Below are positions 6,763 through 38,015 of a stretch of 61,816 nt of DNA, one piece after another; position 1 is the stretch's first letter; each line of letters starts with the position of its first letter. The notes under the pieces were generated by a model. It did not search any database. It worked only from the letters and a program-made list of their open reading frames with translations, and was not told the DNA's origin. Position numbers and translations under genes: made by a program. The DNA is taken from the IMG/VR virus record IMGVR_UViG_2740892042_000003. One strand, 5' to 3'. This DNA is from a virus. Its lineage: Duplodnaviria; Heunggongvirae; Uroviricota; Caudoviricetes.

Positions 6763-7491
6763 TTAACCATGCTTCCTGTACGTCTGCGGCATGCTCCCAA
6801 TAACCTTACCGAAGATGAACACCCGGTTCATCTCGTCTTTCTCGATCGGGTCCCACGGTGAGTAGCTCTTGTTATCAGAGATAACCAGTAGCTTATCTTT
6901 CATCATTTGCAGGCGCTTTACATGGGCTGTGTCGTCGTACAGAAACGCATAGATACCATCACCGTCGAAAGATTTAACCGTGATATCAACGAACAGCAGA
7001 TCACCTGGTTCGATCGTTCCTGACATGCTGTCACCACGCACGTTAATGATGCGGATATTTTCCGCCTTCCTGCCATCGAACATGTGACGAGCATCGTCAA
7101 ACGAGTACTCAACCGAGCGTAGAACTTCTACAAACTCACGGTTGATTACACCCGGCCCGGCACTGACTTCTATATCAAGAACGTCAATTTTGAAGTATTT
7201 GGAATGGCTGACAGCAGGCTTCCCTGATTGTTGACCGTCATTTCTCATCGGGCCTATGCCTGATGAGAGCCATTCTGTTCGAACACCCAATGCATTAGCT
7301 ATTTCAACAATTTTTGTTGAGCCGCGCGCGTTGCCGCTTGTCAGTCTCCAGATTGTGGGTTGAGCTACGCCAGACGCCTTTGCAAGAGCGCCTTGAGACA
7401 TTCCAGATTGTTCCATCGCTAGGTTTAAGCGATCAGCAAGAGTTTCTTTTTTCATAAGTTTTAATTTATACGCTTGCGTATTGATGGTCAA
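6763..7491 (-). CDS. CI-type repressor (HTH plus S24 LexA-like autopeptidase)
   Basis: N-terminal HTH (MSQGALAKASGVAQPTIWRL), C-terminal GDSMSGTIEPGD with downstream KRL; divergent from cro-like gene; start may be internal ATG at 7455. Confidence 0.85.
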   Translation of the reverse strand: MTINTQAYKLKLMKKETLADRLNLAMEQSGMSQGALAKASGVAQPTIWRLTSGNARGSTKIVEIANALGVRTEWLSSGIGPMRNDGQQSGKPAVSHSKYFKIDVLDIEVSAGPGVINREFVEVLRSVEYSFDDARHMFDGRKAENIRIINVRGDSMSGTIEPGDLLFVDITVKSFDGDGIYAFLYDDTAHVKRLQMMKDKLLVISDNKSYSPWDPIEKDEMNRVFIFGKVIGSMPQTYRKHG

Positions 7492-22302: not shown

Positions 22303-22536
22303 TCAATCTGGTCTGACCTGTTTTCTGAGCAATTCAGTAATGTCACTCTTTTCTTTGTTTGCTTCAGGCGAAACTCTTTTTTCTGAGCACAGTCTCCGGC
22401 GGCAGGCTTCAATGACCCAGGCTGAGAAATTCCCGGACCCTTTTTGAACAAGAGCGATGTTAATTTGTTCAATCATTTGGTTAGGAAAGCGGATGTTGCG
22501 GGTTGTTGTTCTGCGGGTTCTGTTCTTCGTTGACAT
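22303..22536 (-). CDS. small DNA-binding-like protein (YlcI/DUF3950-like)
   Basis: 77 aa Arg-rich N-terminus and RHH-like segment NIRFPNQMIEQINIALVQKGSGNFSAWVIEAC. Confidence 0.4.
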   Translation of the reverse strand: MSTKNRTRRTTTRNIRFPNQMIEQINIALVQKGSGNFSAWVIEACRRRLCSEKRVSPEANKEKSDITELLRKQVRPD

Positions 22537-23470: not shown

Positions 23471-26451
<2,981 letters not shown>

Positions 26452-26528
26452 AACCCTTGCTGCGTCTGGAATGTCGTTTTCCATGCTTTTGATGACCGTT
26501 CATCACCCTTCCAGTTTTTCGCGGTTTT

Positions 26529-26581
26529 GTGTATTGCAATGTGTATTGCAAATTGGCGATCGGGATGGGTGTGTATTGCAA
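26529..26581 (+). repeat. integrase arm-type repeats (left end of island)
   Basis: gtgtattgcaa at 26529, 26541, 26571, directly upstream of island int. Confidence 0.55.
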
Positions 26582-26599
26582 ATCTCTTGAGGGCTTTTA

Positions 26600-27841
26600 A
26601 TGGCTATTGAAAACAAACTCAGTGACAAACTGTTAAAGAGTCTTGTCGGAAAACGGCAGGACAAACAAAAAACAATAGCGGATGGGCGCGGGTTGTCTGT
26701 GCGTGTAAGCATGGTTGGGGGGATCAGCTTTGTTTTTTACTATCGTCTTGGTGGCAGGGAATCCCCTCCGGTATGGCTTACACTTGGTCGCTATCCTGAC
26801 ATGTCTCTTGCAACGGCCAGGCGCATGCGTGATCAGTGCCGTGAATGGCTGGCTGAAAATCTGGACCCCCGCAGGCAAATAAAACTTGCTGCCGAAAAAA
26901 CTATGCAACCAGTGACCGTAAGGGATGCGCTGTTTTACTGGTACGACAATCACGCCACAACAGCCAGAAAAGAGCATGAATATTTAATAAAACGATTTGA
27001 AAAGCATATCTTCCCCTATATCGGTGATATGGCTATAGAACAGTGCAAATTACACACATGGCTTACCGTCTTTGACAGGATCAAAAAAAATGCGCCTGTT
27101 ATGTCTGGTGCAATTTTTCTTGATATCAAACAGGCGTTGCGTTTTTGTCGCGTCAGGCAATACATCGCGTGCGATCCCTTTGGAGATATTAACGTAAGTT
27201 ATGTCGGGCGCTCATCCGGTATAAGGGATCGCGTTCTTAATATCAATGAAACCGCTGATGTATGGTCTTATGCTTACGGTAATAATTTGCTAACTCTGTC
27301 ATCAATATATAACCGAAGAATAATGGTTATCTGCCTGGTGTTTGGTTGCCGACAGCAGGAGGCGAGGCTATCCACCTGGGACGAATGGGATTTAAAAAAC
27401 TGGGTATGGACAGTCCCAAAAGAGCACAGCAAAAACAAGGAGGCTATAGTAAGGCCTGTTCCTGACGGAATAAAACAATGGATCGTTAATCTTTACGCAG
27501 AAACAAAAAATCGCGGTTATGTTGTCGGTTGTGCTTTGCAAAGGGCGACAATAACAGGGGCTGCAAACAGAATATGCAGGCGTCTTGGTCATGATACTAA
27601 TGGCTTGTGGTGCATACATGATTTCAGGCGCACATTTTCCACTACGCTTAATGATATGGGGGCGGATCCTTATATTGTCGAACTTCTTTTAGGTCATAAA
27701 GTGAAAGGGGTTGCTGGTGTTTACAATAAAAGCAGGCATATAAAGAAAAAACTTGAGGTGCTTAATATGTGGGTTAATTACCTTAATACGATAGCAGGAT
27801 TTAACAACAACGTTATCGAGCTTAATAAAGAGGTGGTGTGA
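26600..27841 (+). CDS. tyrosine integrase (P4/PICI-type)
   Basis: 413 aa; C-terminal HDFRRTFSTTL...LLGHK...GVAGVY catalytic region. Confidence 0.9.
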   Translation: MAIENKLSDKLLKSLVGKRQDKQKTIADGRGLSVRVSMVGGISFVFYYRLGGRESPPVWLTLGRYPDMSLATARRMRDQCREWLAENLDPRRQIKLAAEKTMQPVTVRDALFYWYDNHATTARKEHEYLIKRFEKHIFPYIGDMAIEQCKLHTWLTVFDRIKKNAPVMSGAIFLDIKQALRFCRVRQYIACDPFGDINVSYVGRSSGIRDRVLNINETADVWSYAYGNNLLTLSSIYNRRIMVICLVFGCRQQEARLSTWDEWDLKNWVWTVPKEHSKNKEAIVRPVPDGIKQWIVNLYAETKNRGYVVGCALQRATITGAANRICRRLGHDTNGLWCIHDFRRTFSTTLNDMGADPYIVELLLGHKVKGVAGVYNKSRHIKKKLEVLNMWVNYLNTIAGFNNNVIELNKEVV

Positions 27842-27842
27842 T

Positions 27843-28100
27843 ATGGCAATTTATTCTCTTGTTGATGAAAACGATTTGCGCACAATGAAGGACATTGATC
27901 GGTTCATTCGTGAAAAAGAGTGCATAGCACTTACCACGCTGGCAAACTCAACACGCTGGAAAATGGAGCAGGCAGGTAAATTCCCGCGACGTATCAAGAT
28001 CGGTGAACGTGCTGCAGGGTATCGACTTTCAGAGGTTCAGGCATGGATCCGTGGTGAGTGGCATCCTGGATGGAAACCTGGAAAAACAAAACAGCAATAA
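27843..28100 (+). CDS. AlpA-family regulator/excisionase
   Basis: 85 aa; directly after int; AlpA-like HTH region. Confidence 0.7.
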   Translation: MAIYSLVDENDLRTMKDIDRFIREKECIALTTLANSTRWKMEQAGKFPRRIKIGERAAGYRLSEVQAWIRGEWHPGWKPGKTKQQ

Positions 28101-28156
28101 CCAGTAAATAATGCCCCTCATCACGAGGGGTTTTTTGTCTATAAGGTAAAAACGCG

Positions 28157-28735
28157 ATGAATAAAAATATTGCCGTGACGGGCAAGGGGTACGCTCGTCC
28201 AGTGAAAAAATTCTGCGATATTCGTGATCTCGTCGTTCTGCGCTTTGATAGTGTGAACGTTCGTGTGGTGTATCTGAACGGCGATCCGTGGTTTGTTGCA
28301 AAAGATGTTTGTGCTGCGCTGGAACTAACCAATTCGCGTACGGCGTTGCAGATGCTTGATGATGATGAAAAGGGAGTAAATTTAACTTACACCCCAGGAG
28401 GAAATCAGAATATGAGAATTATCTCTGAGTCAGGTTTCTACAAACTAATAGCCCGCAGCCGCAAAGCAACGACGCCTGGCACATTTGCTCATCGTTTCAG
28501 TAACTGGGTATTCAGAAATGTGATACCAGGTATCAGAAAAACGGGGACTTATGGTATCCCGTGGGGTGCATTACAGGATTTTTCCCGCCGTAAAGAGCAA
28601 TATCAAATAAGTGCCAGCGAGAAGGGGAGGGAGCTACAGGCATGTAAGCGCAAAAAGCGTGAGCTGGAGGAAGAAGAAAAAACGCTGATACGTGAATATC
28701 AGCCTGAGTTTTACTTTGGTAACCGCATTCAGTGA
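28157..28735 (+). CDS. Bro-N domain antirepressor-like protein
   Basis: VVYLNGDPWFVAKDVCAALEL... Bro-N signature. Confidence 0.7.
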   Translation: MNKNIAVTGKGYARPVKKFCDIRDLVVLRFDSVNVRVVYLNGDPWFVAKDVCAALELTNSRTALQMLDDDEKGVNLTYTPGGNQNMRIISESGFYKLIARSRKATTPGTFAHRFSNWVFRNVIPGIRKTGTYGIPWGALQDFSRRKEQYQISASEKGRELQACKRKKRELEEEEKTLIREYQPEFYFGNRIQ

Positions 28736-29068
28736 CAAAACAAAGGCGACCGCAAAAGGGTCGCCAGTGGGAACAAGGGAAAACAAAAGCATCACCAACA
28801 ATGCCACATTTGCGGCTGGTGGGCAATGTGATCAGTCAGATTTGGTTCGTTCCAAGGTTTGCAACGAGAGCTTTTTCCTGTGCTCTTTAAGGAATTTCTC
28901 AAGAGCAAACGAACAAGGTGCGAATCTTTCTGATTCATGTTCATGCGCTATATTTTTGCGTCGCCTCTTACGAGTTGGTGATGGTGTTTTGGTTGATTCT
29001 GTGTCGCTCATGGTGCTGTCCTGTAAAGCAATGCGCCTGCGTTCCTCAAACTATGGCGCTGATATTGG

Positions 29069-29374
29069 CTATTCATGCTCTTTGACCTTGCGTCGCTGGA
29101 GTTCTTCACGCGCGACGGTGACGAGTTGCCCGATCTCCTCGGCTGCTTTGATGCCGATTTGTTCGACCTTAGCCAGGGCATCCAGTGACGACACAAGGGG
29201 ATTTTCTCCGCTGCCTTCTGCTTGGCGGCGGGCTATTTCTCCGCGCATGGCGGTTACGATAAATCCGGCATTGCTTTCACCGTCCAGCTTAACGGATTCC
29301 ATCCCTTGCATAACATCTAGTGGGACTCTGACAGTTGTCAGTTGTGATTTTGCGTTTTTGTTAGCCGTTGCCAT
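29069..29374 (-). CDS. putative ribbon-helix-helix repressor
   Basis: 101 aa; N-terminal QLTTVRVPLDVMQGME beta-strand/helix pattern; divergent from promoter/operator at 29436-29473. Confidence 0.45.
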   Translation of the reverse strand: MATANKNAKSQLTTVRVPLDVMQGMESVKLDGESNAGFIVTAMRGEIARRQAEGSGENPLVSSLDALAKVEQIGIKAAEEIGQLVTVAREELQRRKVKEHE

Positions 29375-29435
29375 TTCTGAAACTCCTAATCATCGGTGTG
29401 TTTCAGTATACACAAAAAAAGAAATACAAAAAGCC

Positions 29436-29473
29436 TTGACGTGTGTTTCATGCGCTCATAACATGAAACACAC
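29436..29473 (+). promoter_or_regulatory. sigma70-like promoter overlapped by a 12-bp perfect inverted-repeat operator
   Basis: ttgacg-17 nt-taacat; inverted repeat gtgtgtttcatg (29441-29452) / catgaaacacac (29462-29473). Confidence 0.5.
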
Positions 29474-29564
29474 CGAAAGGATTGTTGAAATACAAAGAGC
29501 AACGCCCCGCAGTGCTGGGAACACATACGGGGCGTCTAACCAACAACGTAAACTAGGAGCCGTT

Positions 29565-29762
29565 ATGGTTGCTGTAAATCATATACCACACCTTGTACAC
29601 ACACAAACGGCCTTTGTGTGGCGTTTTCTGGCACTGAGTGCCGGAGAATCTCAAATCATCCACGTAACCGCCTGGACGGAACGCGAAGCGCGTAGCCGTT
29701 GCCCGTCCGGTTGTGTTGCTGTATTCGCTGCAAAAATCCGCCAGGGAGTGAGTCATGCTTAA
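29565..29762 (+). CDS. small Icd-like protein (host cell-division inhibitor family)
   Basis: 65 aa MVAVNHIPHLVHTQTAFVWRF..., AGGAG RBS; pattern of P4-type Icd-like proteins. Confidence 0.5.
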   Translation: MVAVNHIPHLVHTQTAFVWRFLALSAGESQIIHVTAWTEREARSRCPSGCVAVFAAKIRQGVSHA

Positions 29763-29940
29763 AACCTTCCGTGTATTTGCCCGAGCTGTTAACCCAATAG
29801 GCCACACAATTGGTATCGCTCAGAATGTGAAGGCTGTTAATGTTCAGACGGCTATTGCTGCGGTGAGAAGCGAATCATCAGAATATGGCTTATCACAAGT
29901 CATTATTTCAGCAGTGTATGAATTAAAAGAGGTGCATTAA
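29755..29940 (+). CDS. hypothetical protein
   Basis: 61-aa ORF in island early operon. Confidence 0.3.
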   Translation: MLKTFRVFARAVNPIGHTIGIAQNVKAVNVQTAIAAVRSESSEYGLSQVIISAVYELKEVH

Positions 29941-30131
29941 TGCAGGAAATTACATTACACGAAGCCGCTGAACGTGCGCACCAGACAGAAATTATTTGCC
30001 GCCTTCTTGAGGTATACCCGAACAAAATTACAGATGCTGATATATCCGCACTGGCGAGCCTACTGGCGCGTCTTTCGGGAAGTGTCGCTAGTTTTTTGAT
30101 TGAGGAAGAAAGTAAGCTGGTGGGGGATTAA
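29940..30131 (+). CDS. hypothetical protein
   Basis: 63-aa ORF, tightly packed in operon. Confidence 0.3.
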   Translation: MQEITLHEAAERAHQTEIICRLLEVYPNKITDADISALASLLARLSGSVASFLIEEESKLVGD

Positions 30132-30353
30132 ATGAATACAGAACGGGAAGTCTTTTTTAAATTGTTAGCATGTGCAGAAAGTTCATTAACTTTAAATAAT
30201 TCAGCAAAAGCAATATTAAATATGTGGCTTGATTGCATAAATGACAATGAAGATGCAAATATTGCTTATGGCCTGTTGTCACTTATTGATGAATCAGCAG
30301 AAAAACTCAATGACGCAATAAATAGTGCCCTGCTATCAAATAAGTCGAGTTAA
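30132..30353 (+). CDS. hypothetical protein
   Basis: 73-aa ORF, AT-rich codon usage unlike neighbours. Confidence 0.3.
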   Translation: MNTEREVFFKLLACAESSLTLNNSAKAILNMWLDCINDNEDANIAYGLLSLIDESAEKLNDAINSALLSNKSS

Positions 30354-30370
30354 GTCGAGGAATAAATAAT

Positions 30371-30670
30371 ATGGAAATGAAAAATTCTGGCTTTATTGCT
30401 AGCGGCCCCGCTCGACCTGAATTTATGAACGGCGATATTTACCGCGATAAATACGGCGGCACGGTAACGATTAAAGGCGTGGCAGAACGGCGCATCACTT
30501 ACCGCCGTGAGGGGTATAGCTATGACTGCGTGATGCCTGTTTATCAGTTCCGGCGTGATTTTTCCCTGGTATATGCCGCACCCCGCAGTAAGCCCATCAG
30601 CAGGGAAAAAGCGTGGGGAAATATCCAGAAAATGAAAACCATGATTAACGGATTCAGAGGTAAAAAATGA
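30371..30670 (+). CDS. hypothetical protein
   Basis: 99-aa ORF overlapping primase start. Confidence 0.4.
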   Translation: MEMKNSGFIASGPARPEFMNGDIYRDKYGGTVTIKGVAERRITYRREGYSYDCVMPVYQFRRDFSLVYAAPRSKPISREKAWGNIQKMKTMINGFRGKK

Positions 30671-32418
30671 AACTGGCACCGAACTTAAAAAAACAGCCAC
30701 GCGACAGACTGACAGAGATAATCATCTTTGCAGGTAGTGATGCGTGGAGCCATGCGAAAGAGTGGCAGGAATGGGCGGGTAAACATATTGCCGCCGACGA
30801 TGTGCCGCCTGTCGTGTTGGCTGATGAGCAACTGAAAAACATCACCGATTACCGGATCATTGATGAAGATCGTCAGTGTGTGCGTGTTTACCGCGCAGGA
30901 CATATCACAGAGCACAGCATGACGCAGATTGTTACGTTACTGGCTGTGGCTGGAGTGAAGACCGTACACGAATACGCGGGGATTACTGACACCAGCCCAG
31001 TGGATTTATCCGACCAGTTGCCGCGACTCAAAGAGGAATGCGAGCGTGGGGAAAGCCTGGTGCTTAATCTTCCGACGAAGCAAAAGGCGCAACTTTCACA
31101 GATGGCAGACAGTGAGCGCGCGCAGCTGCTTGCCGAGCGCTTTGATGGCGTTTGTGTGCATCCGGAAAGTGAAATCGTTCACGTATGGCGCGGCGGGGTA
31201 TGGTGTCCGATCAGCACAATGGAGCTGAGCCGCGAAATGGTGGCGATCTATTCAGAGCACAGGGCCACTTTCAGCAAACGCGTGATCAATAACGCCGTTG
31301 AAGCGTTAAAAGTTATTGCCGAACCAATGGGCGAGCCGTCCGGCGATTTGCTGCCGTTCGCCAATGGTGCGCTTGACCTGAAAACGGGGGAATTTTCCCC
31401 GCACACGCCGGAGAACTGGATCACCACGCACAACGGCATTGAGTACACGCCACCAGCACCAGGGGAGAACATCCGCGATAACGCGCCAAACTTTCATAAA
31501 TGGCTTGAGCACGCAGCCGGAAAAGACCCGCGCAAGATGATGCGTATATGTGCCGCGCTGTACATGATTATGGCGAACCGGTACGACTGGCAGATGTTCA
31601 TTGAGGCCACCGGAGACGGGGGAAGCGGTAAGAGTACATTTACCCATATTGCCACCCTGCTTGCTGGCAAACAGAACACCGTAAGCGCAGAGATGACATC
31701 ACTCGATGATGCAGGAGGGCGCGCGCAGGTTGTCGGGAGTCGTCTTATCGTCCTTGCCGATCAGCCGAAATATACGGGGGAAGGCACGGGCATCAAGAAA
31801 ATCACGGGAGGCGATCCCGTTGAAATCAACCCGAAATATGAGAAGCGATTCACGACGATAATAAGGGCGGTGGTACTGGCAACCAATAACGACCCGATGA
31901 TCTTTACCGAACGGGCCGGAGGTGTGTCACGCCGTCGGGTGATTTTCCGGTTCGACAACATTGTAAGGGAGGACGAAAAAGACAAGGAATTACCGGAAAA
32001 GATAGCGGCAGAAATCCCCGTAATTATCCGCCGCTTGCTGGCTAATTTTGCTGACCCTGAAAAGGCACGGGCTTTATTACTGGAACAGCGTGACGGTGAT
32101 GAAGCTCTGGCAATAAAGCAGCAAACGGATCCGGTTGTTGAGCTTTGCGCGGCGCTGGAGTTTCTGGAGGAAGCTCGTGGGCTAATGATGGGCGGTGGTG
32201 GTGACACCGTGAAGTACACGACCAGAAACAGCCTTTACCGTGTCTATATGGCCTTCATGGCATATACAGGAAAGGGGAAATGTTTGAGCGTGAATGAGTT
32301 CGGAAAGGCTATGAGGTCAGCGGCGAAAGTTTACGGATATGAATATATTACGCGAAAAGTTAAGGGAGTCACGCAGACCAACGCAACGACTACTGATGAT
32401 TGCGATGCGTTTTTATAA
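30667..32418 (+). CDS. primase-helicase (P4 alpha/PICI Pri-Rep-like)
   Basis: 583 aa; Walker A GDGGSGKST and D5/P4-type helicase region. Confidence 0.85.
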   Translation: MKLAPNLKKQPRDRLTEIIIFAGSDAWSHAKEWQEWAGKHIAADDVPPVVLADEQLKNITDYRIIDEDRQCVRVYRAGHITEHSMTQIVTLLAVAGVKTVHEYAGITDTSPVDLSDQLPRLKEECERGESLVLNLPTKQKAQLSQMADSERAQLLAERFDGVCVHPESEIVHVWRGGVWCPISTMELSREMVAIYSEHRATFSKRVINNAVEALKVIAEPMGEPSGDLLPFANGALDLKTGEFSPHTPENWITTHNGIEYTPPAPGENIRDNAPNFHKWLEHAAGKDPRKMMRICAALYMIMANRYDWQMFIEATGDGGSGKSTFTHIATLLAGKQNTVSAEMTSLDDAGGRAQVVGSRLIVLADQPKYTGEGTGIKKITGGDPVEINPKYEKRFTTIIRAVVLATNNDPMIFTERAGGVSRRRVIFRFDNIVREDEKDKELPEKIAAEIPVIIRRLLANFADPEKARALLLEQRDGDEALAIKQQTDPVVELCAALEFLEEARGLMMGGGGDTVKYTTRNSLYRVYMAFMAYTGKGKCLSVNEFGKAMRSAAKVYGYEYITRKVKGVTQTNATTTDDCDAFL

Positions 32419-32434
32419 AAAATGGCAATGGTTA

Positions 32435-32670
32435 TCTACCTTGTCTACCTGACTGAAATAAAATACTTTTATTTCAATGTATTAATGCAGGTAGATAACT
32501 ATTTTTCACTGTCTACCTGTTATCTACCTTATCTACCCATTTTTGTAGACAGGTAAGGAGACGGGTAGAGATGAGGTAGACAGCTATTTGGGGCTGTCTA
32601 CCTCCCTGAAACCCGCGCCATTACTGGCCTGATAACTAATCAAGTAGACAAGGTAGACAAGGTGGTGGTG
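32435..32670. repeat. island replication origin iterons
   Basis: more than 12 copies of gtctacc / ggtagac in both orientations immediately 3' of the primase gene. Confidence 0.65.
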
Positions 32671-32707
32671 CACAAAAAACTTTTTAAACGAGGGGGTAAA
32701 AATAAAA

Positions 32708-32965
32708 ATGCACACATCAGGAAAACTGAACAAACATATAAAGCCACATTACCGCGCCCTTGATATGGCTGAACACTGGCTAAGGGTGGCGATTAAGGCA
32801 ATAGACCGCAACGCCGGGGAAGGATACGCGAAAGCACATCCCGAACTGATAAGCGCATTCATGACAACGGCGGCTGCAAACTTTGCCACGCTGACCGAAC
32901 GGGAGATTGCCGAAGCGGAACAGGTGACAACCATCAATGTTAAAACCGGAGAGCAGACAGCATGA
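32708..32965 (+). CDS. hypothetical protein
   Basis: 85-aa ORF overlapping ssb start. Confidence 0.35.
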   Translation: MHTSGKLNKHIKPHYRALDMAEHWLRVAIKAIDRNAGEGYAKAHPELISAFMTTAAANFATLTEREIAEAEQVTTINVKTGEQTA

Positions 32966-33384
32966 CAGCACAGATAGCGGCTTACGGGCGGCTGGTGGCT
33001 GACCCGCAGTTAAAGACCACCAGCAAAGGGACACAAATGGCGATGGCGAGTATGGCGGTTCCCCTGCCGTGCAGCCAGGCAGATGACGGAACGGCGACGA
33101 TGTGGTTATCCGTCCTGGCGTTTGGCAGACAGGCCGACGCACTGGCAAAACACCACAAAGGCGAACTGGTGAGCGTGGCGGGTAACATGCAGGTAAGCCA
33201 GTGGACAGGCCAGAACGGCGAAACGCGGCGGGGCTGGCAGGTTATCGCAGACAGCGTAATCAGTGCGCGAACGGCGCGACCGGGCGGCAAAAAAGGCCAG
33301 CAGGGGCAGGCCACTGACGCACTGAACAGGGCAAAACAACAGTCGGGGAATGATGATCCGTACGGCGATAATATACCGTTTTAA
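32962..33384 (+). CDS. ssb: single-stranded DNA-binding protein
   Basis: 140 aa; OB-fold N-terminus, Gly/Gln-rich linker and C-terminal ...DDPYGDNIPF tail. Confidence 0.8.
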   Translation: MTAQIAAYGRLVADPQLKTTSKGTQMAMASMAVPLPCSQADDGTATMWLSVLAFGRQADALAKHHKGELVSVAGNMQVSQWTGQNGETRRGWQVIADSVISARTARPGGKKGQQGQATDALNRAKQQSGNDDPYGDNIPF

Positions 33385-33595
33385 ATTCTGCAAACAAAAA
33401 GATGCCGGAAAAAAATAGATTTTCCGGCATGCTACATAAATCCCGACCAAAGGAAGTAAATACATTAACACGAATTATCAGCACTGAAGTTGTTACGGCA
33501 TATTTTATACAACATTGCACTTGGTTGCATGTATTCGCATAGCAGACATCGGTAATAGAATATATTCACAATTATTTGTAATGAATGTAAAGAGG

Positions 33596-34643
33596 ATGAG
33601 TATGGTTGATTTATATTCGCCTACACAGCTTGTGCAGGTGGCTAATGCTGAAGATGTGCAAAAAAAAATTAAATGCGTTGTTTACCAGTTTGTTTTTCAC
33701 TCGCTCGGTAATGTTTGAATCGAGAGACATTATTCTTGATACGATCGACGATCCAAATATCCCGATCGCGGCGTTTTGCTCTCCTATGGTGGGCAGTAAA
33801 GTTTCACGAGATGAGGGATACGAATCAAAAACAATTCGTCCAGGTTATATGAAGCCGAAAAGCAGCATTGATCCAAATAAGTTAGCTGTGCGCCCTGCTG
33901 GTGTGTCACCTGAGCAATACAATGCTTTTGGGGCGCGTAATATTAAAGTTAAACAGGCGATTGTAAATCAGGCTAAAGCTATTCGTGCACGTATTGAATG
34001 GCTTGCTGTTCAGGCAATCACAACGGGGAAAAATATCATTGAGGGCGATGGTATTGAACGTTATGAGCTGGACTGGAATATAAAACCACAAAATATCATC
34101 ACTCAGTCTGGCGGTACTGAGTGGTCAGGTAAGGATAAAGAAACTTTTGATCCAAATGATGATATTGAGAGCTACGCAGAATTTAGTGAGGGCGTCACTA
34201 ATATCATCATTATGGGTGGTAATGTATGGAAGAAATACCGTTCATTCAGAGCGATAAAAGAGGCTTTGGATACCCGTCGTGGTTCTAATTCCGAACTGGA
34301 AACGGCCCTTAAAGACCTTGGTGATTCGGTGAGTTTTAAAGGGTATATGGGCGATGTTGCGATTGTTGTTTACAGCGGGCGTTATACCGACGAGGACGGA
34401 ACAGAAAAACATTTCCTTGATCCTGATTTGATGGTGCTTGGCAATACGGCTCTTCAGGGGATTGTCGCCTATGGCGGTATTCAGGATCCGGAGCTAATCC
34501 GAATGGGGCTGACTAAAGCCGAACTTGCACCGAAAAACTATATTGTGCCTGGTGATCCGGCTATTGAATATGTGCAGACACATTCAGCACCACAGCCAAT
34601 ACCGGCCCGCATCAATCGTTTTGTTACCGTTCGCATTGGCTAA
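33596..34643 (+). CDS. gpE-like major capsid protein, frameshifted at an A9 tract
   Basis: AAGAGG RBS and ATG at 33596; MSMVDLYSPTQLVQVANAEDVQKK aligns with lambda E N-terminus, then homology continues in +1 frame after A9 run 33660-33668 (LNALFTSLFFTRS... to end); about 40 percent similar to prophage E. Confidence 0.75.
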
Positions 34644-34652
34644 GGGGGAGCA

Positions 34653-34994
34653 ATGGCTACTCATTACACTGAACTCATGGCTGGCACTGAAGCACTGGTG
34701 ACTACGCTGGGGATATTTTCAGCTAATAAAGGGGTAATTCCTGCATTTACGCCACTGATGCAGGAAGATGCAACAGGTGCACTGGTGGTATGGGATGGTT
34801 CGAGCGTAGGTAAAGCGGTTTATGTTTCCGCTGTACAAATCGACACAGCGAAAAAAACACAGGCACAGGTTTATAAGACAGGTGTTTTAAATGTTGATGC
34901 TCTGAACTGGCCTGAGTCTGTAAAAGAACTGTCGGCAAAGGTTGCCGCGTTTGTTGGCTCAGGTATTTCTGTTCAGCCGCTGGCTCGTGTGTAA
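34653..34994 (+). CDS. gpD-like head decoration protein
   Basis: 113 aa; TPLMQEDATGALVVWDGSS aligns with lambda [21 protein letters not shown]. Confidence 0.7.
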   Translation: MATHYTELMAGTEALVTTLGIFSANKGVIPAFTPLMQEDATGALVVWDGSSVGKAVYVSAVQIDTAKKTQAQVYKTGVLNVDALNWPESVKELSAKVAAFVGSGISVQPLARV

Positions 34995-35005
34995 AGGGGG
35001 ATACA

Positions 35006-35389
35006 ATGCAGAATCATTACAATGACCTTAAGCCAATTGCCGAAATGATGTATCCGGATCCAGCAGTAGAGGAATTAAAGGCTATTGCTGACAAAATGCG
35101 TTTAAGTGAACGCCTTGTTGATATGAATCAGGTGATGGAACTTACTACCCTTAGCCGTCGCACATTGCTAAACCTTGAGGCTCGCGGAGAGTTCCCCGAA
35201 CGCGTACAGGTTACGGAAGGGCGTAAGGCCTGGTATTTAAGTGAAGTGATCGACTGGATAAACAATATTCCTCGATCTTCTGAATATTGCCGCGTACCTG
35301 TCCCAAAAAAGCCAGATGCGGCGCTATGCCTCAAGATTGAGCGTGTACGTCGCAATGCACGGGATGGTCGCTATAAGTTGATTGGTTGA
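35006..35389 (+). CDS. AlpA-family transcriptional regulator
   Basis: ELTTLSRRTLLNLEARGEFPERVQVTEGRKAWYLSEVIDWI AlpA-type HTH. Confidence 0.6.
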   Translation: MQNHYNDLKPIAEMMYPDPAVEELKAIADKMRLSERLVDMNQVMELTTLSRRTLLNLEARGEFPERVQVTEGRKAWYLSEVIDWINNIPRSSEYCRVPVPKKPDAALCLKIERVRRNARDGRYKLIG

Positions 35390-35445
35390 TGAAATTAGGG
35401 CCCGTTCTGGCTGGCGGGTCCTTTCCGGCGATCCGGTAGGCTACG

Positions 35446-35479
35446 GGGCGGCGACCTCGCGGGTTTTCGCTATTTATGA
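35446..35479. other. island cos site with lambda-identical cosN
   Basis: gggcggcgacctcgcgggttttcgctatttatga, preceded by cosQ-like cgggtcctttccggcgatccggtagg. Confidence 0.65.
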
Positions 35480-35590
35480 GCCTTTTTCGGGTGCTGGTGG
35501 TGGTTTTGTTGCTCGCTCTATCTCTATGAATAAAAAGGAAAAGATAAAGCCAATACACCAACCTGAAACATTACTTAAGTGGGGATATTG

Positions 35591-36133
35591 ATGAAATCGC
35601 ACCTGATGAACAAAAAAAACATGGCGCAAAGCTGCCGTGTAAGTGCGACAGCGTTCGACAAGTGGGGAGTGACTCCCGTTGAACGTAAAGGCCGCGAGGC
35701 GTTTTATGATGTTGCCAGCGTAATAGACAATCGGGTTAGCAATGCAATTAACCAGATTACAGACGACAAAGGCGAGATTGATGATGATGAACTCCTACGA
35801 GTCAGGATCAGATTGCTGACAGCACAGGCAGAGGCGCAGGAGCTTAAAAACGAGCGCGAACGCGGCGACGTTATTGATACAGCGTTTTGTATATACGTGC
35901 TTTCAAAATTGGCGAGTCAGATTTCTTCAATCATGGACAGCCTGCCGCTTGCCATGACAAGGAAGTTTCCCGACATGAAGCCGTCTATGCTGGATGGACT
36001 GAAAAAAGAAGTTATCAGAGCCTGTAACGCATGCGCAAAACTTGACGAAAACATACCGCTGATGCTGTCCGATTATCTGATGGAAACTGCCGGAAACGTA
36101 CCGGATAAGTTGCAGCCGAATAAAGATAAGTAA
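35591..36133 (+). CDS. Nu1-like terminase small subunit
   Basis: aligns with lambda Nu1 (NKKQ...; ELKN...VIDTAFCIYVLSKLASQISSIMDSLPLAMTRKFPDM vs ELKNAKESAEVVETAFCTFVLSRIAREISSILDGIPLSVQRRFPEL). Confidence 0.7.
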   Translation: MKSHLMNKKNMAQSCRVSATAFDKWGVTPVERKGREAFYDVASVIDNRVSNAINQITDDKGEIDDDELLRVRIRLLTAQAEAQELKNERERGDVIDTAFCIYVLSKLASQISSIMDSLPLAMTRKFPDMKPSMLDGLKKEVIRACNACAKLDENIPLMLSDYLMETAGNVPDKLQPNKDK

Positions 36134-36144
36134 CGTAGTACGCT

Positions 36145-36426
36145 ATGACTGAATCCGAAATACTGCGATTAATCCGCCGTGCTTGTGGAATCAGCAAGCA
36201 GCATGACGAACAGGCCACGCAGCCGGACAGCGTGACCGCAGATAATTATGTGCGTGTAGTGGCTGAGGTGATGCGCCGTGACGGTATTGAGCTTAACGGC
36301 GTGGATATGCGCAACATACGAACAAGAGTCCTTGAGTTGCTGGCATATCGTCGCCGTTCTCAACAACGGAGGGAGAGCGCGAAAAATACTTACCAGTGGA
36401 AGAAGCCGGAACGATTGCGGCGGTAA
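36145..36426 (+). CDS. hypothetical Arg-rich protein
   Basis: 93-aa ORF directly after island terS. Confidence 0.35.
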   Translation: MTESEILRLIRRACGISKQHDEQATQPDSVTADNYVRVVAEVMRRDGIELNGVDMRNIRTRVLELLAYRRRSQQRRESAKNTYQWKKPERLRR

Positions 36427-36680
36427 CTTGCTGATATTCCCGATAACGCAAAATTGCGCTGGCTGACTTGTTGCATTGCAAAAAGTTAAGCAGGAAGGCA
36501 CGGCCTGTAAGATGGGATGCAGTAAGTAGTTCAAGGCTACCTTGTGCTGGCACGCACAGTTAAGCCGTCGGTGCTGGATATCCCCCACTGGGGGAAAAGC
36601 TGGCTACATCCCTCACATCTGAGGACTGATAACGCGACATTGCGCTGGCTGGCAAAGTGCAAAATTGCACGATGGCCTAA

Positions 36681-36817
36681 CCCATTGATTATTTCGAAAA
36701 CCTGCAATGCAGGAAATCGGGGAAGTAAGCCTAAGCTATTGATTGTTTCGAAAACCCCCATTGGGGGATGTCGGGAAAGTAAGACTAACCCATTGATTCT
36801 TCCACAATCCTCAATTT
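36681..36817 (+). repeat. three direct repeats near island right end (candidate TerS/cosB-like binding sites)
   Basis: cccattgattatttcgaaaacc, gctattgattgtttcgaaaacc, cccattgattcttccacaatcc, each near a G5/C5 hairpin. Confidence 0.45.
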
Positions 36818-37140
36818 GAGGAGGCCGGAACGTCTACATAGCTGCATCGCCGTAATGATGATTCAGCCCACCAGTCAAATCAGCACAGCAACGACAGAAT
36901 AGCCCGACACAGAAAAACCACGAATATGGGGTTTTTGTTATGACATGGTCATGATGACCACTCATACAAAACAGGTAAAGCCCACCAGCCTGATTAAAGG
37001 TTAACCGGAAAAAAGCCAGGTATCCAATCTCGATATGGGGATCCCTATATCGACATTAACGCCCACTAAAACTGTGCATATATGCATAGAAAAAGCATCC
37101 ACCAGCTTTATGACGGATGCCGCTCATCTTATAAATAATC

Positions 37141-37162
37141 GTGTATTGCAGTGTGTATTGCG
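37141..37162 (+). repeat. integrase arm-type repeats (right end of island)
   Basis: gtgtattgca gtgtgtattgcg, same motif as left-arm repeats. Confidence 0.55.
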
Positions 37163-37235
37163 ACTCCTTTAAACGATAGGTCTGAGCATTCGTAATGTAC
37201 TGTTTTTAAATTTTATTTTTTCCTGTCTTTTCATA

Positions 37236-38015
37236 AAGGCGATGTATGCCGCCACCATTGAGAGTGAGCTGGATACGCAGTCAGCGATGGATTTTATTCT
37301 GGGCGCGAACAGTAAGGAGCAGCGGGACAAGCTGACCGGCTGGATTGGTGAAATTGCCGCGTATTACGCCGCAGCACCGGTCCGTCTGGGAGGCGCAAAA
37401 GTGCCGCACCTGATGCCGGGGGACTCACTGAACCTGCAGACGGCTCAGGACACGGATAACGGCTACTCCGTGTTTGAGCAGTCACTGCTGCGGTATATCG
37501 CTGCCGGACTGGGTGTCTCGTATGAGCAGCTTTCCCGGAATTACGCCCAGATGAGCTACTCCACGGCACGGGCCAGCGCGAACGAGTCGTGGGCGCACTT
37601 TATGGGGCGGCGAAAATTCGTCGCATCCCGTCAGGCGAGCCAGATGTTTCTGTGCTGGCTGGAAGAGGCCATCGCCCGCCGCGTGGTGACGTTACCTTCA
37701 AAAGCGCGCTTCAGTTTTCAGGAAGCCCGCAGTGCCTGGGGGAACTGCGACTGGATAGGCTCCGGTCGTATGGCCATCGATGGTCTGAAAGAAGTTCAGG
37801 AAGCGGTGATGCTGATAGAAGCCGGGCTGAGTACCTACGAGAAAGAGTGTGCAAAACGCGGCGATGACTATCAGGAAATTTTTGCCCAGCAGGTCCGTGA
37901 AACGATGGAGCGTCGTGCAGCCGGTCTTAAACCACCCGCCTGGGCGGCTGCGGCATTTGAATCCGGGCTGCGACAATCAACAGAGGAGGAGAAGAGTGAC
38001 AGCAGAGCTGCGTAA
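37236..38015 (+). pseudogene. B: portal protein B, C-terminal 257 codons
   Basis: MYAATIESELDTQSAMDF... matches lambda gpB residues 277-533; 276 + 257 = 533. Confidence 0.85.

Follow-up and report, generated by a model that had tools for sequence, protein, structure and literature searches.

The region between the divergent genes ylcI and icd, in the 61,816-nucleotide stretch of viral DNA analysed here (the window), probably constitutes a repressor/operator switch that controls the replication ("early") operon in a helper-embedded PICI. The candidate repressor is the small protein YlcI, and its putative targets are short boxes that span the promoters of both genes. An operator function for these boxes is supported because, from locus to locus, all of them change together and in step with residues 12-15 of YlcI. 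The divergent repressor/operator arrangement and the operator function anticipated by the sequence-only reading of this DNA are thereby retained, while the scope that it assigned to the switch has to be reduced.

The island (26452-37241), ~10.8 kb long, is inserted in a lambdoid prophage, whose portal gene it divides into an N-terminal part (25570-26451) and a C-terminal part (about 37242-38015), both of which are annotated as partial portal in an identical locus (L001). The island is co-oriented with the helper terminase genes, its integrase gene lying on the same strand as terminase, and the stretch carrying the genes of integrase, AlpA and the Bro-N protein (26600-28735) runs in the direction of the helper late operon. 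The annotation of an identical island in E. coli A0 34/86 includes primase, SSB, major capsid, decoration protein and small terminase, and the genes for integrase, AlpA and primase follow the Integration-Bro-Replication-Late order of HE-PICIs. With its seat in a lambdoid portal gene, the island belongs to the helper-embedded PICIs described in 2023 (PMC10111431), which likewise occupy a lambdoid late gene, run in its direction and are divided into Integration, Bro, Replication and Late zones. The helper prophage encodes a YlcI/YnfO-family protein of its own (77 aa; 22303-22536, minus strand) just upstream of the terminase genes; it scores 35 bits against NF041551, above the cutoff, its homologues carry Pfam DUF3950, and the gene is without annotation in the identical genome record. 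The island genes and transcript elements around the switch are the following:

26600-27841, plus strand: integrase (Pfam Phage_integrase)
27843-28100, plus strand: AlpA (Pfam Phage_AlpA)
28157-28735, plus strand: Bro-N protein (Pfam Bro-N)
28745-28765, minus strand: terminator-like hairpin followed by a T-run (terminator scan)
28832-29011, minus strand: basic 59-aa ORF downstream of ylcI (phrog_21027, E 5e-15)
29069-29374, minus strand: ylcI, 101-aa YlcI/YnfO-family protein and candidate repressor (NCBIfam NF041551)
29500-29541, plus strand: icd leader hairpin, ACGCCCCG...CGGGGCGT, then UCUAACCA (RNAalifold)
29565-29762, plus strand: Icd-like gene of 65 aa, first of the rightward operon (NCBIfam NF033153, E 1.2e-17)
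29755-32418, plus strand: remainder of the operon, with three small ORFs, a DUF4222 gene and primase (ORF list, Pfam, annotation of the identical island)
30371-30670, plus strand: DUF4222 gene, a member of the operon
30667-32418, plus strand: primase gene, the end of the operon

The genes from icd to primase are considered one operon because they overlap or abut. An Icd-like small protein does stand at its head, as the sequence-only reading had it, although the gene starts at 29565 and not at 29566; the divergent 101-aa gene of that reading is ylcI itself. The 59-aa ORF is probably co-transcribed with ylcI, and the hairpin at 28745-28765 would end the common transcript. Homologues of this ORF occupy the same position in four other loci (L010, L012, L093 and L095), and it is missing from some.

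The rightward promoter, P_icd, comprises a −35 element TTGACG (29436-29441) and a −10 element TAACAT (29459-29464) with a spacer of 17 nt, so that the earlier reading of this promoter proved accurate. A consensus promoter scan also picks the site, with 9 of 12 matches; by itself the match is not significant, because the scan found 6 sites where 10.4 were expected. The perfect 12-bp inverted repeat claimed to overlap the promoter is likewise present, with its arms GTGTGTTTCATG (29441-29452) and CATGAAACACAC (29462-29473) separated by 9 nt. The whole window contains three perfect 12-bp inverted repeats with a spacer of up to 20 nt, where 100 Markov-shuffled windows have 0.06 on average, and chance is excluded as the origin of the one at P_icd. 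This repeat belongs to an array of five boxes of the TGTGTTTCA type, their centres 21-24 bp apart, spanning both divergent promoters. The 10-mer GTGTGTTTCA occurs exactly three times in the 61.8 kb, every copy within 29396-29473, and no further boxes were found in the island outside the ylcI-icd intergenic region. From left to right, the elements of the array and its promoters are:

29396-29405, plus strand: box S1, exact GTGTGTTTCA, directly downstream of the leftward −10 and over the region of the ylcI transcript start
29406-29411, minus strand: proposed −10 of the ylcI promoter, TATACT, read from the sequence and not called by the promoter scan
29420-29429, minus strand: box S1′, degenerate (AGAAATACAA / GAAATACA), between the two promoters
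29436-29464, plus strand: rightward promoter P_icd, TTGACG, 17 nt, TAACAT (sequence read and consensus scan)
29441-29450, plus strand: box S2, exact, in the left arm of the 12-bp inverted repeat, filling the P_icd spacer beside the −35
29464-29473, minus strand: box S3, exact, in the right arm of the repeat, covering the end of the −10 together with the site where transcription is expected to start
29486-29495, minus strand: box S4, degenerate (TGAAATACAA), in the early transcribed region

The third exact box, the two degenerate boxes, the leftward −10 and the conserved leader hairpin are additions to the sequence-only reading. The degeneracy of S1′ recurs in other loci whose YlcI carries the same residues 12-15 (LTTV). 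No good −35 is recognisable for the −10 at 29406-29411; its position is occupied in relatives by TATAAT, TATATT, TATAGT or TAATGT, and TATACT at 29411-29406 appears to be the best candidate for the ylcI −10.

The leader hairpin at 29500-29541 has a consensus fold over 17 loci (RNAalifold) with four pairs showing compensatory changes; its fold z-score is only −1.19, an energy that is not unusual. Having no U-run, it was rejected as an intrinsic terminator; it matches no Rfam family and is not a C4 or isrK RNA. The hairpin marks the start of the similarity to other islands (L093), and this region may be a recombination junction. A second small hairpin lies near the icd ribosome-binding site (29553-29567) and by eye seems to co-vary (CGATA/TATCG versus CGTTA/TAACG).

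The evidence that carries the operator reading comes from a comparison of about 90 loci, 7 from other genera, 4 from other E. coli islands and 80 from metagenomes. In all collected loci ylcI is divergent from an Icd-like gene, and the P_icd hexamers with their 17-nt spacing are found in the same place in relatives as distant as those of Photorhabdus, Yersinia, Pantoea and Xenorhabdus, among others; with the anchor set correctly, hexamers and spacing are kept in 16 of 18 representative loci. The box sequence, in turn, differs between loci, but within one locus all copies change together, and in other classes the position equivalent to S1 holds the locus-specific box. In most of the 18 representative loci, which cover 11 strand classes, the most repeated 8-mer has 4-6 copies, and in four of them three, where shuffling gives a mean of ~2.4; of the 20 loci tested, 4 showed no significant motif enrichment. 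The copies recur in many loci at offsets of ~22, 45, 67, 90 and 112 nt, counted from the start codon of ylcI.

A probe-by-locus matrix shows diagonal blocks that correspond to the strand classes, which are defined by the residues at positions 12-15 of YlcI. LTTV, the class of this island, pairs with box TGTGTTTCA, QISI with TGTGATTCA, S[LV]TA with TGTAAGAC or GTAATTAC, MTTI with TGTATATCA and QLNA with GGTATTCAC. Two loci, L009 and L011, encode proteins whose C-terminal halves are almost identical to that of the window YlcI but which have another strand segment and another box. Conversely, within one class (the window, L002 and L028) the boxes are retained but the 9 nt between the arms have diverged. 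The strand codons and the boxes are only ~40 bp apart, and physical linkage could account for part of the association; it is not a full explanation, because three to five separate boxes change in concert. Taken with the placement of the boxes within the promoter cores, this concerted change is good indirect evidence that YlcI binds the boxes and represses P_icd and its own gene, and the pattern supports immunity-like specificity classes of a repressor/operator switch.

It might be argued that the boxes are sites for another factor, such as AlpA or a host protein, or a chance product of shared ancestry, and that the role of YlcI is unrelated to them. AlpA is indeed a known activator in these elements. 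Nevertheless, the box sequence follows the strand segment of YlcI and neither AlpA nor the Icd variant, both of which assort independently of the YlcI class, and we regard this explanation as extremely unlikely. The assignment of the boxes to YlcI as repressor is well supported, if indirectly.

YlcI belongs to the YlcI/YnfO family, with 63.3 bits over residues 9-50 against model NF041551 (curated cutoff 30, E 1.6e-17). No Pfam family scored above cutoff, the best of the ribbon-helix-helix families being PF07704 at E 0.022, and separate Pfam searches with the N- and C-terminal halves at E≤10 gave nothing; a search of a phage collection with the switch (blastn) and with YlcI (tblastn) gave no match either. 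In an AlphaFold model built on 32 homologues (pLDDT 84) an extended N-terminus is followed by helices 19-28 and 35-54 and by a long helix 59-100, and the predicted strand of the N-domain comprises approximately residues 11-17. The two top Foldseek matches of the model in the PDB, with E-values that are not significant, are NikR and Arc, both ribbon-helix-helix (RHH) proteins, and the closest compact structural matches are the RHH antitoxins Rv0298, TacA1 and MazE7. Alignments of YlcI with Arc, Mnt and the Arc-family profile by hhalign are consistent in register, the best one with Arc placing YlcI TTVRVPLDV on Arc FNLRWPREV, but their scores are not significant (probability 7-9%; 9% for the Arc-family profile). 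The predicted fold hence supports an RHH-like N-domain, unproven by sequence. As for the C-terminal half, the profile search against PDB sequences yielded nothing beyond a weak match to Hef (1x2i, E 0.003), helix-hairpin-helix-like and covering residues 45-86, whereas the AlphaFold model has one continuous helix there; this half may be either a single long helix or weakly helix-hairpin-helix-like. By analogy with Mnt, it presumably serves as an oligomerisation element.

A close parallel in design is offered by Arc and Mnt of P22 immI. Like YlcI, these are small phage-type repressors with an N-terminal strand-helix-helix, which in YlcI is predicted, and their operators overlap the promoter cores of a divergent pair, as the YlcI boxes do; Mnt, in addition, ends in a helical tetramerisation domain (1qey). 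The likeness has limits beyond the lack of significant sequence similarity: the C-terminal half of YlcI is different, and Arc and Mnt use one 21-bp operator, whereas the YlcI boxes form an array of five at intervals of ~21-24 bp.

The structural likeness to antitoxins suggests another function for the locus, in which ylcI and the 59-aa ORF would form a type II toxin-antitoxin pair whose boxes autoregulate the pair only, the overlap with P_icd being incidental. A small gene behind an RHH gene on the same strand matches the order in which antitoxin and toxin genes usually occur. However, the 59-aa ORF matches no toxin family in Pfam or NCBIfam, lies 57 nt away from ylcI and does not occur in several loci that retain ylcI and the boxes, while the two strongest boxes are in the core of P_icd and not in that of the ylcI promoter. 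A toxin-antitoxin pair is therefore highly improbable.

We infer binding, repression, autoregulation, tetramerisation and the route of induction in the following model of the YlcI switch. In the quiescent state, a weak leftward promoter with its −10 at 29411-29406 would transcribe ylcI. Dimers of YlcI, as RHH proteins, would read the TGTGTTTCA boxes, of 9-10 bp, through the N-terminal strand, the specificity being set by residues 12-15. The two strong boxes S2, in the spacer, and S3, at the −10 and start site, bracket the P_icd −10, and YlcI bound there would exclude RNA polymerase, keeping the genes from icd through DUF4222 to primase silent. Occupation of S1, just downstream of the ylcI −10, would produce negative autoregulation, and the two weaker boxes, together with the spacing of about two turns, would allow the array to be filled cooperatively through the C-terminal helix. 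Induction would take place in cis: helper late transcription would pass through int, alpA and bro, cross ylcI in the antisense direction and go on into the operon, AlpA would drive excision, and replication would titrate the remaining repressor. Since the island is inside the helper late operon and co-oriented with it, such read-through seems to be the most likely way of inducing the operon, and late transcription that is driven by the helper and enters the satellite is reported by Tommasini, Mageeney and Williams 2023 (PMC10111431).

YlcI could instead be repressed or inactivated in trans by an anti-repressor, either the Bro-N protein of the island or a helper protein, as is the case with SaPI Stl; this is rather unlikely. 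Among the PHROG families, the Bro-N protein hits those labelled "anti-repressor" (phrog_2593, E 4e-85), AntA/AntB genes occupy the Bro-N slot of other islands, and the YlcI/YnfO-family protein of the helper (22303-22536) could in principle interfere with YlcI. On the other hand, nine islands (L010, L017, L019, L021, L022 and L025-L028) have no Bro-N homologue between AlpA and ylcI and yet carry a YlcI that is 98-100% identical, with the same operator, and the helper protein has hardly any sequence in common with YlcI (BLASTP E 0.1) and has a different strand segment. The distribution rules out Bro-N as a dedicated, conserved partner of YlcI, and with it falls the suggestion of the sequence-only reading that the Bro-N protein upstream mediates a helper-sensing derepression. 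Induction in cis by helper read-through is the route we favour; the sequence-only reading had overlooked that the island lies within the helper late operon and in its orientation.

The comparison with Stl (Rpr) of SaPIs and Gram-positive PICIs is instructive in other respects. Stl is a satellite repressor divergent from the replication operon that keeps the island silent until the helper is active (PMC6092414), and YlcI is likewise divergent from its operon, but Stl is not a relative of YlcI. In the Stl islands int lies on the side of the repressor, whereas here int and alpA are upstream, on the strand opposite to ylcI and co-oriented with the operon; the arrangement of a Stl/Rpr-type module, with int on the side and strand of the repressor, is thus not that of the ylcI locus. 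Moreover, the relief of Stl by a helper protein is an experimental result, whereas for YlcI it would be hypothetical.

A different type of control over the same kind of operon is exerted by the P4 CI and P1 C4 immunity RNAs, which likewise govern an early operon with an Icd-like gene that ends in primase. In the C4/isrK systems an RNA mediates termination, whereas in this island control is apparently exerted by a protein at the promoter. The Rfam models of C4/isrK (RF01695 and RF01394) found no match in 26400-37400 even at E≤1, while the positive controls L094 and L009 were detected. In related islands C4/isrK RNAs occur at the corresponding place near icd, in L094 and, in addition to ylcI, in L009. 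In L009 a set of C4, isrK and c4-a1b1 RNAs (6885-7089) lies inside a second Icd-like gene, alongside the ylcI switch, an arrangement that would place two layers of control in series.

The slot of ylcI can also hold a different gene. In O157:H7-type PICIs it is filled by a 57-aa ORF on the minus strand (L093, 3270-3443; also L095, 3499-3672) which is without annotation and matches Arc and YlcI_YnfO_N weakly, and the −10 of the same promoter lies between two GGTAATTACC palindromes. That a different Arc-like ORF with palindromes of its own fills the slot elsewhere, at the same promoter, argues for the slot being a repressor cassette. Of 5426 complete E. coli genomes, 800 carry the ylcI module, Nissle 1917 and O104:H4 among them, and 589 of the 5426 carry the 57-aa Arc-like cassette; strain RM9131 has both in tandem. 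In most of the matches listed, the 57-aa ORF is overlaid by a plus-strand annotation as "Icd-like pseudogene".

The scope of the switch has to be delimited against AlpA, the required (master) activator of Gram-negative PICIs (PMC6092414, PMC11773190). The reach of the YlcI switch is most likely confined to the icd-to-primase operon and ylcI, because the boxes occur only in that intergenic region. It can hardly be, as had been suggested, the master switch of the whole island, which also carries AlpA (27843-28100). Nevertheless, a global repressor in Gram-negative PICIs was called "unclear" by Fillol-Salom et al. (PMC6092414), and the YlcI switch could be the repressor missing so far from Gram-negative satellites of this type. 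The word "repressor" is absent from the capsid-forming PICI preprint, and a recent survey lists YlcI/YnfO merely as an accessory gene of cf-PICIs (PMC13612085). PMC10111431 deals, in its available part, with AlpA, Bro-network proteins and C4/isrK immunity RNAs, that part making no mention of ylcI, its boxes or a protein repressor. A search of the literature on YlcI/YnfO or RHH regulators in PICIs, with incomplete journal coverage, found no paper on this switch.

A wider reading can be put forward tentatively, at slightly less than even chances: YlcI/YnfO proteins would be the repressors that have long been sought in a large group of Gram-negative PICIs, capsid-forming and helper-embedded islands among them; four strand residues and matched boxes would set many hetero-immune classes; the swappable slot would also hold unannotated Arc-like genes, misread by current pipelines as Icd-like pseudogenes; and control would be shared by repressor and AlpA instead of belonging to AlpA alone. 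If this is true, an operator-matched repressor before the replication operon changes the AlpA-only picture for many islands, the YlcI/YnfO family acquires its first function, the natural series of strand/box pairs becomes available for studying how ribbon-helix-helix DNA specificity changes, and the Arc-like/icd locus carries a systematic annotation error in hundreds of genomes. The mechanism itself is conventional and the type of element has already been described; the novelty would reside in a function for an uncharacterised family and in a candidate repressor.

Other elements of the island lie apart from the switch. Three copies of TGTGTATTGCAA are found upstream of int (26533-26580) and a further GTGTGTATTGC near the other island end (37151-37161); they may be arm-type sites of the integrase or sites for AlpA. 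The late zone contains a second gene for an AlpA-like helix-turn-helix protein (127 aa, 35006-35389; phrog_2790, "excisionase and transcriptional regulator"), flanked by the decoration gene and the small-terminase gene. A perfect 12-bp inverted repeat (GAGGTAGACAGC, 8 nt, complement) at 32573-32604, a short way downstream of the primase gene, is probably part of the replication origin of the island.
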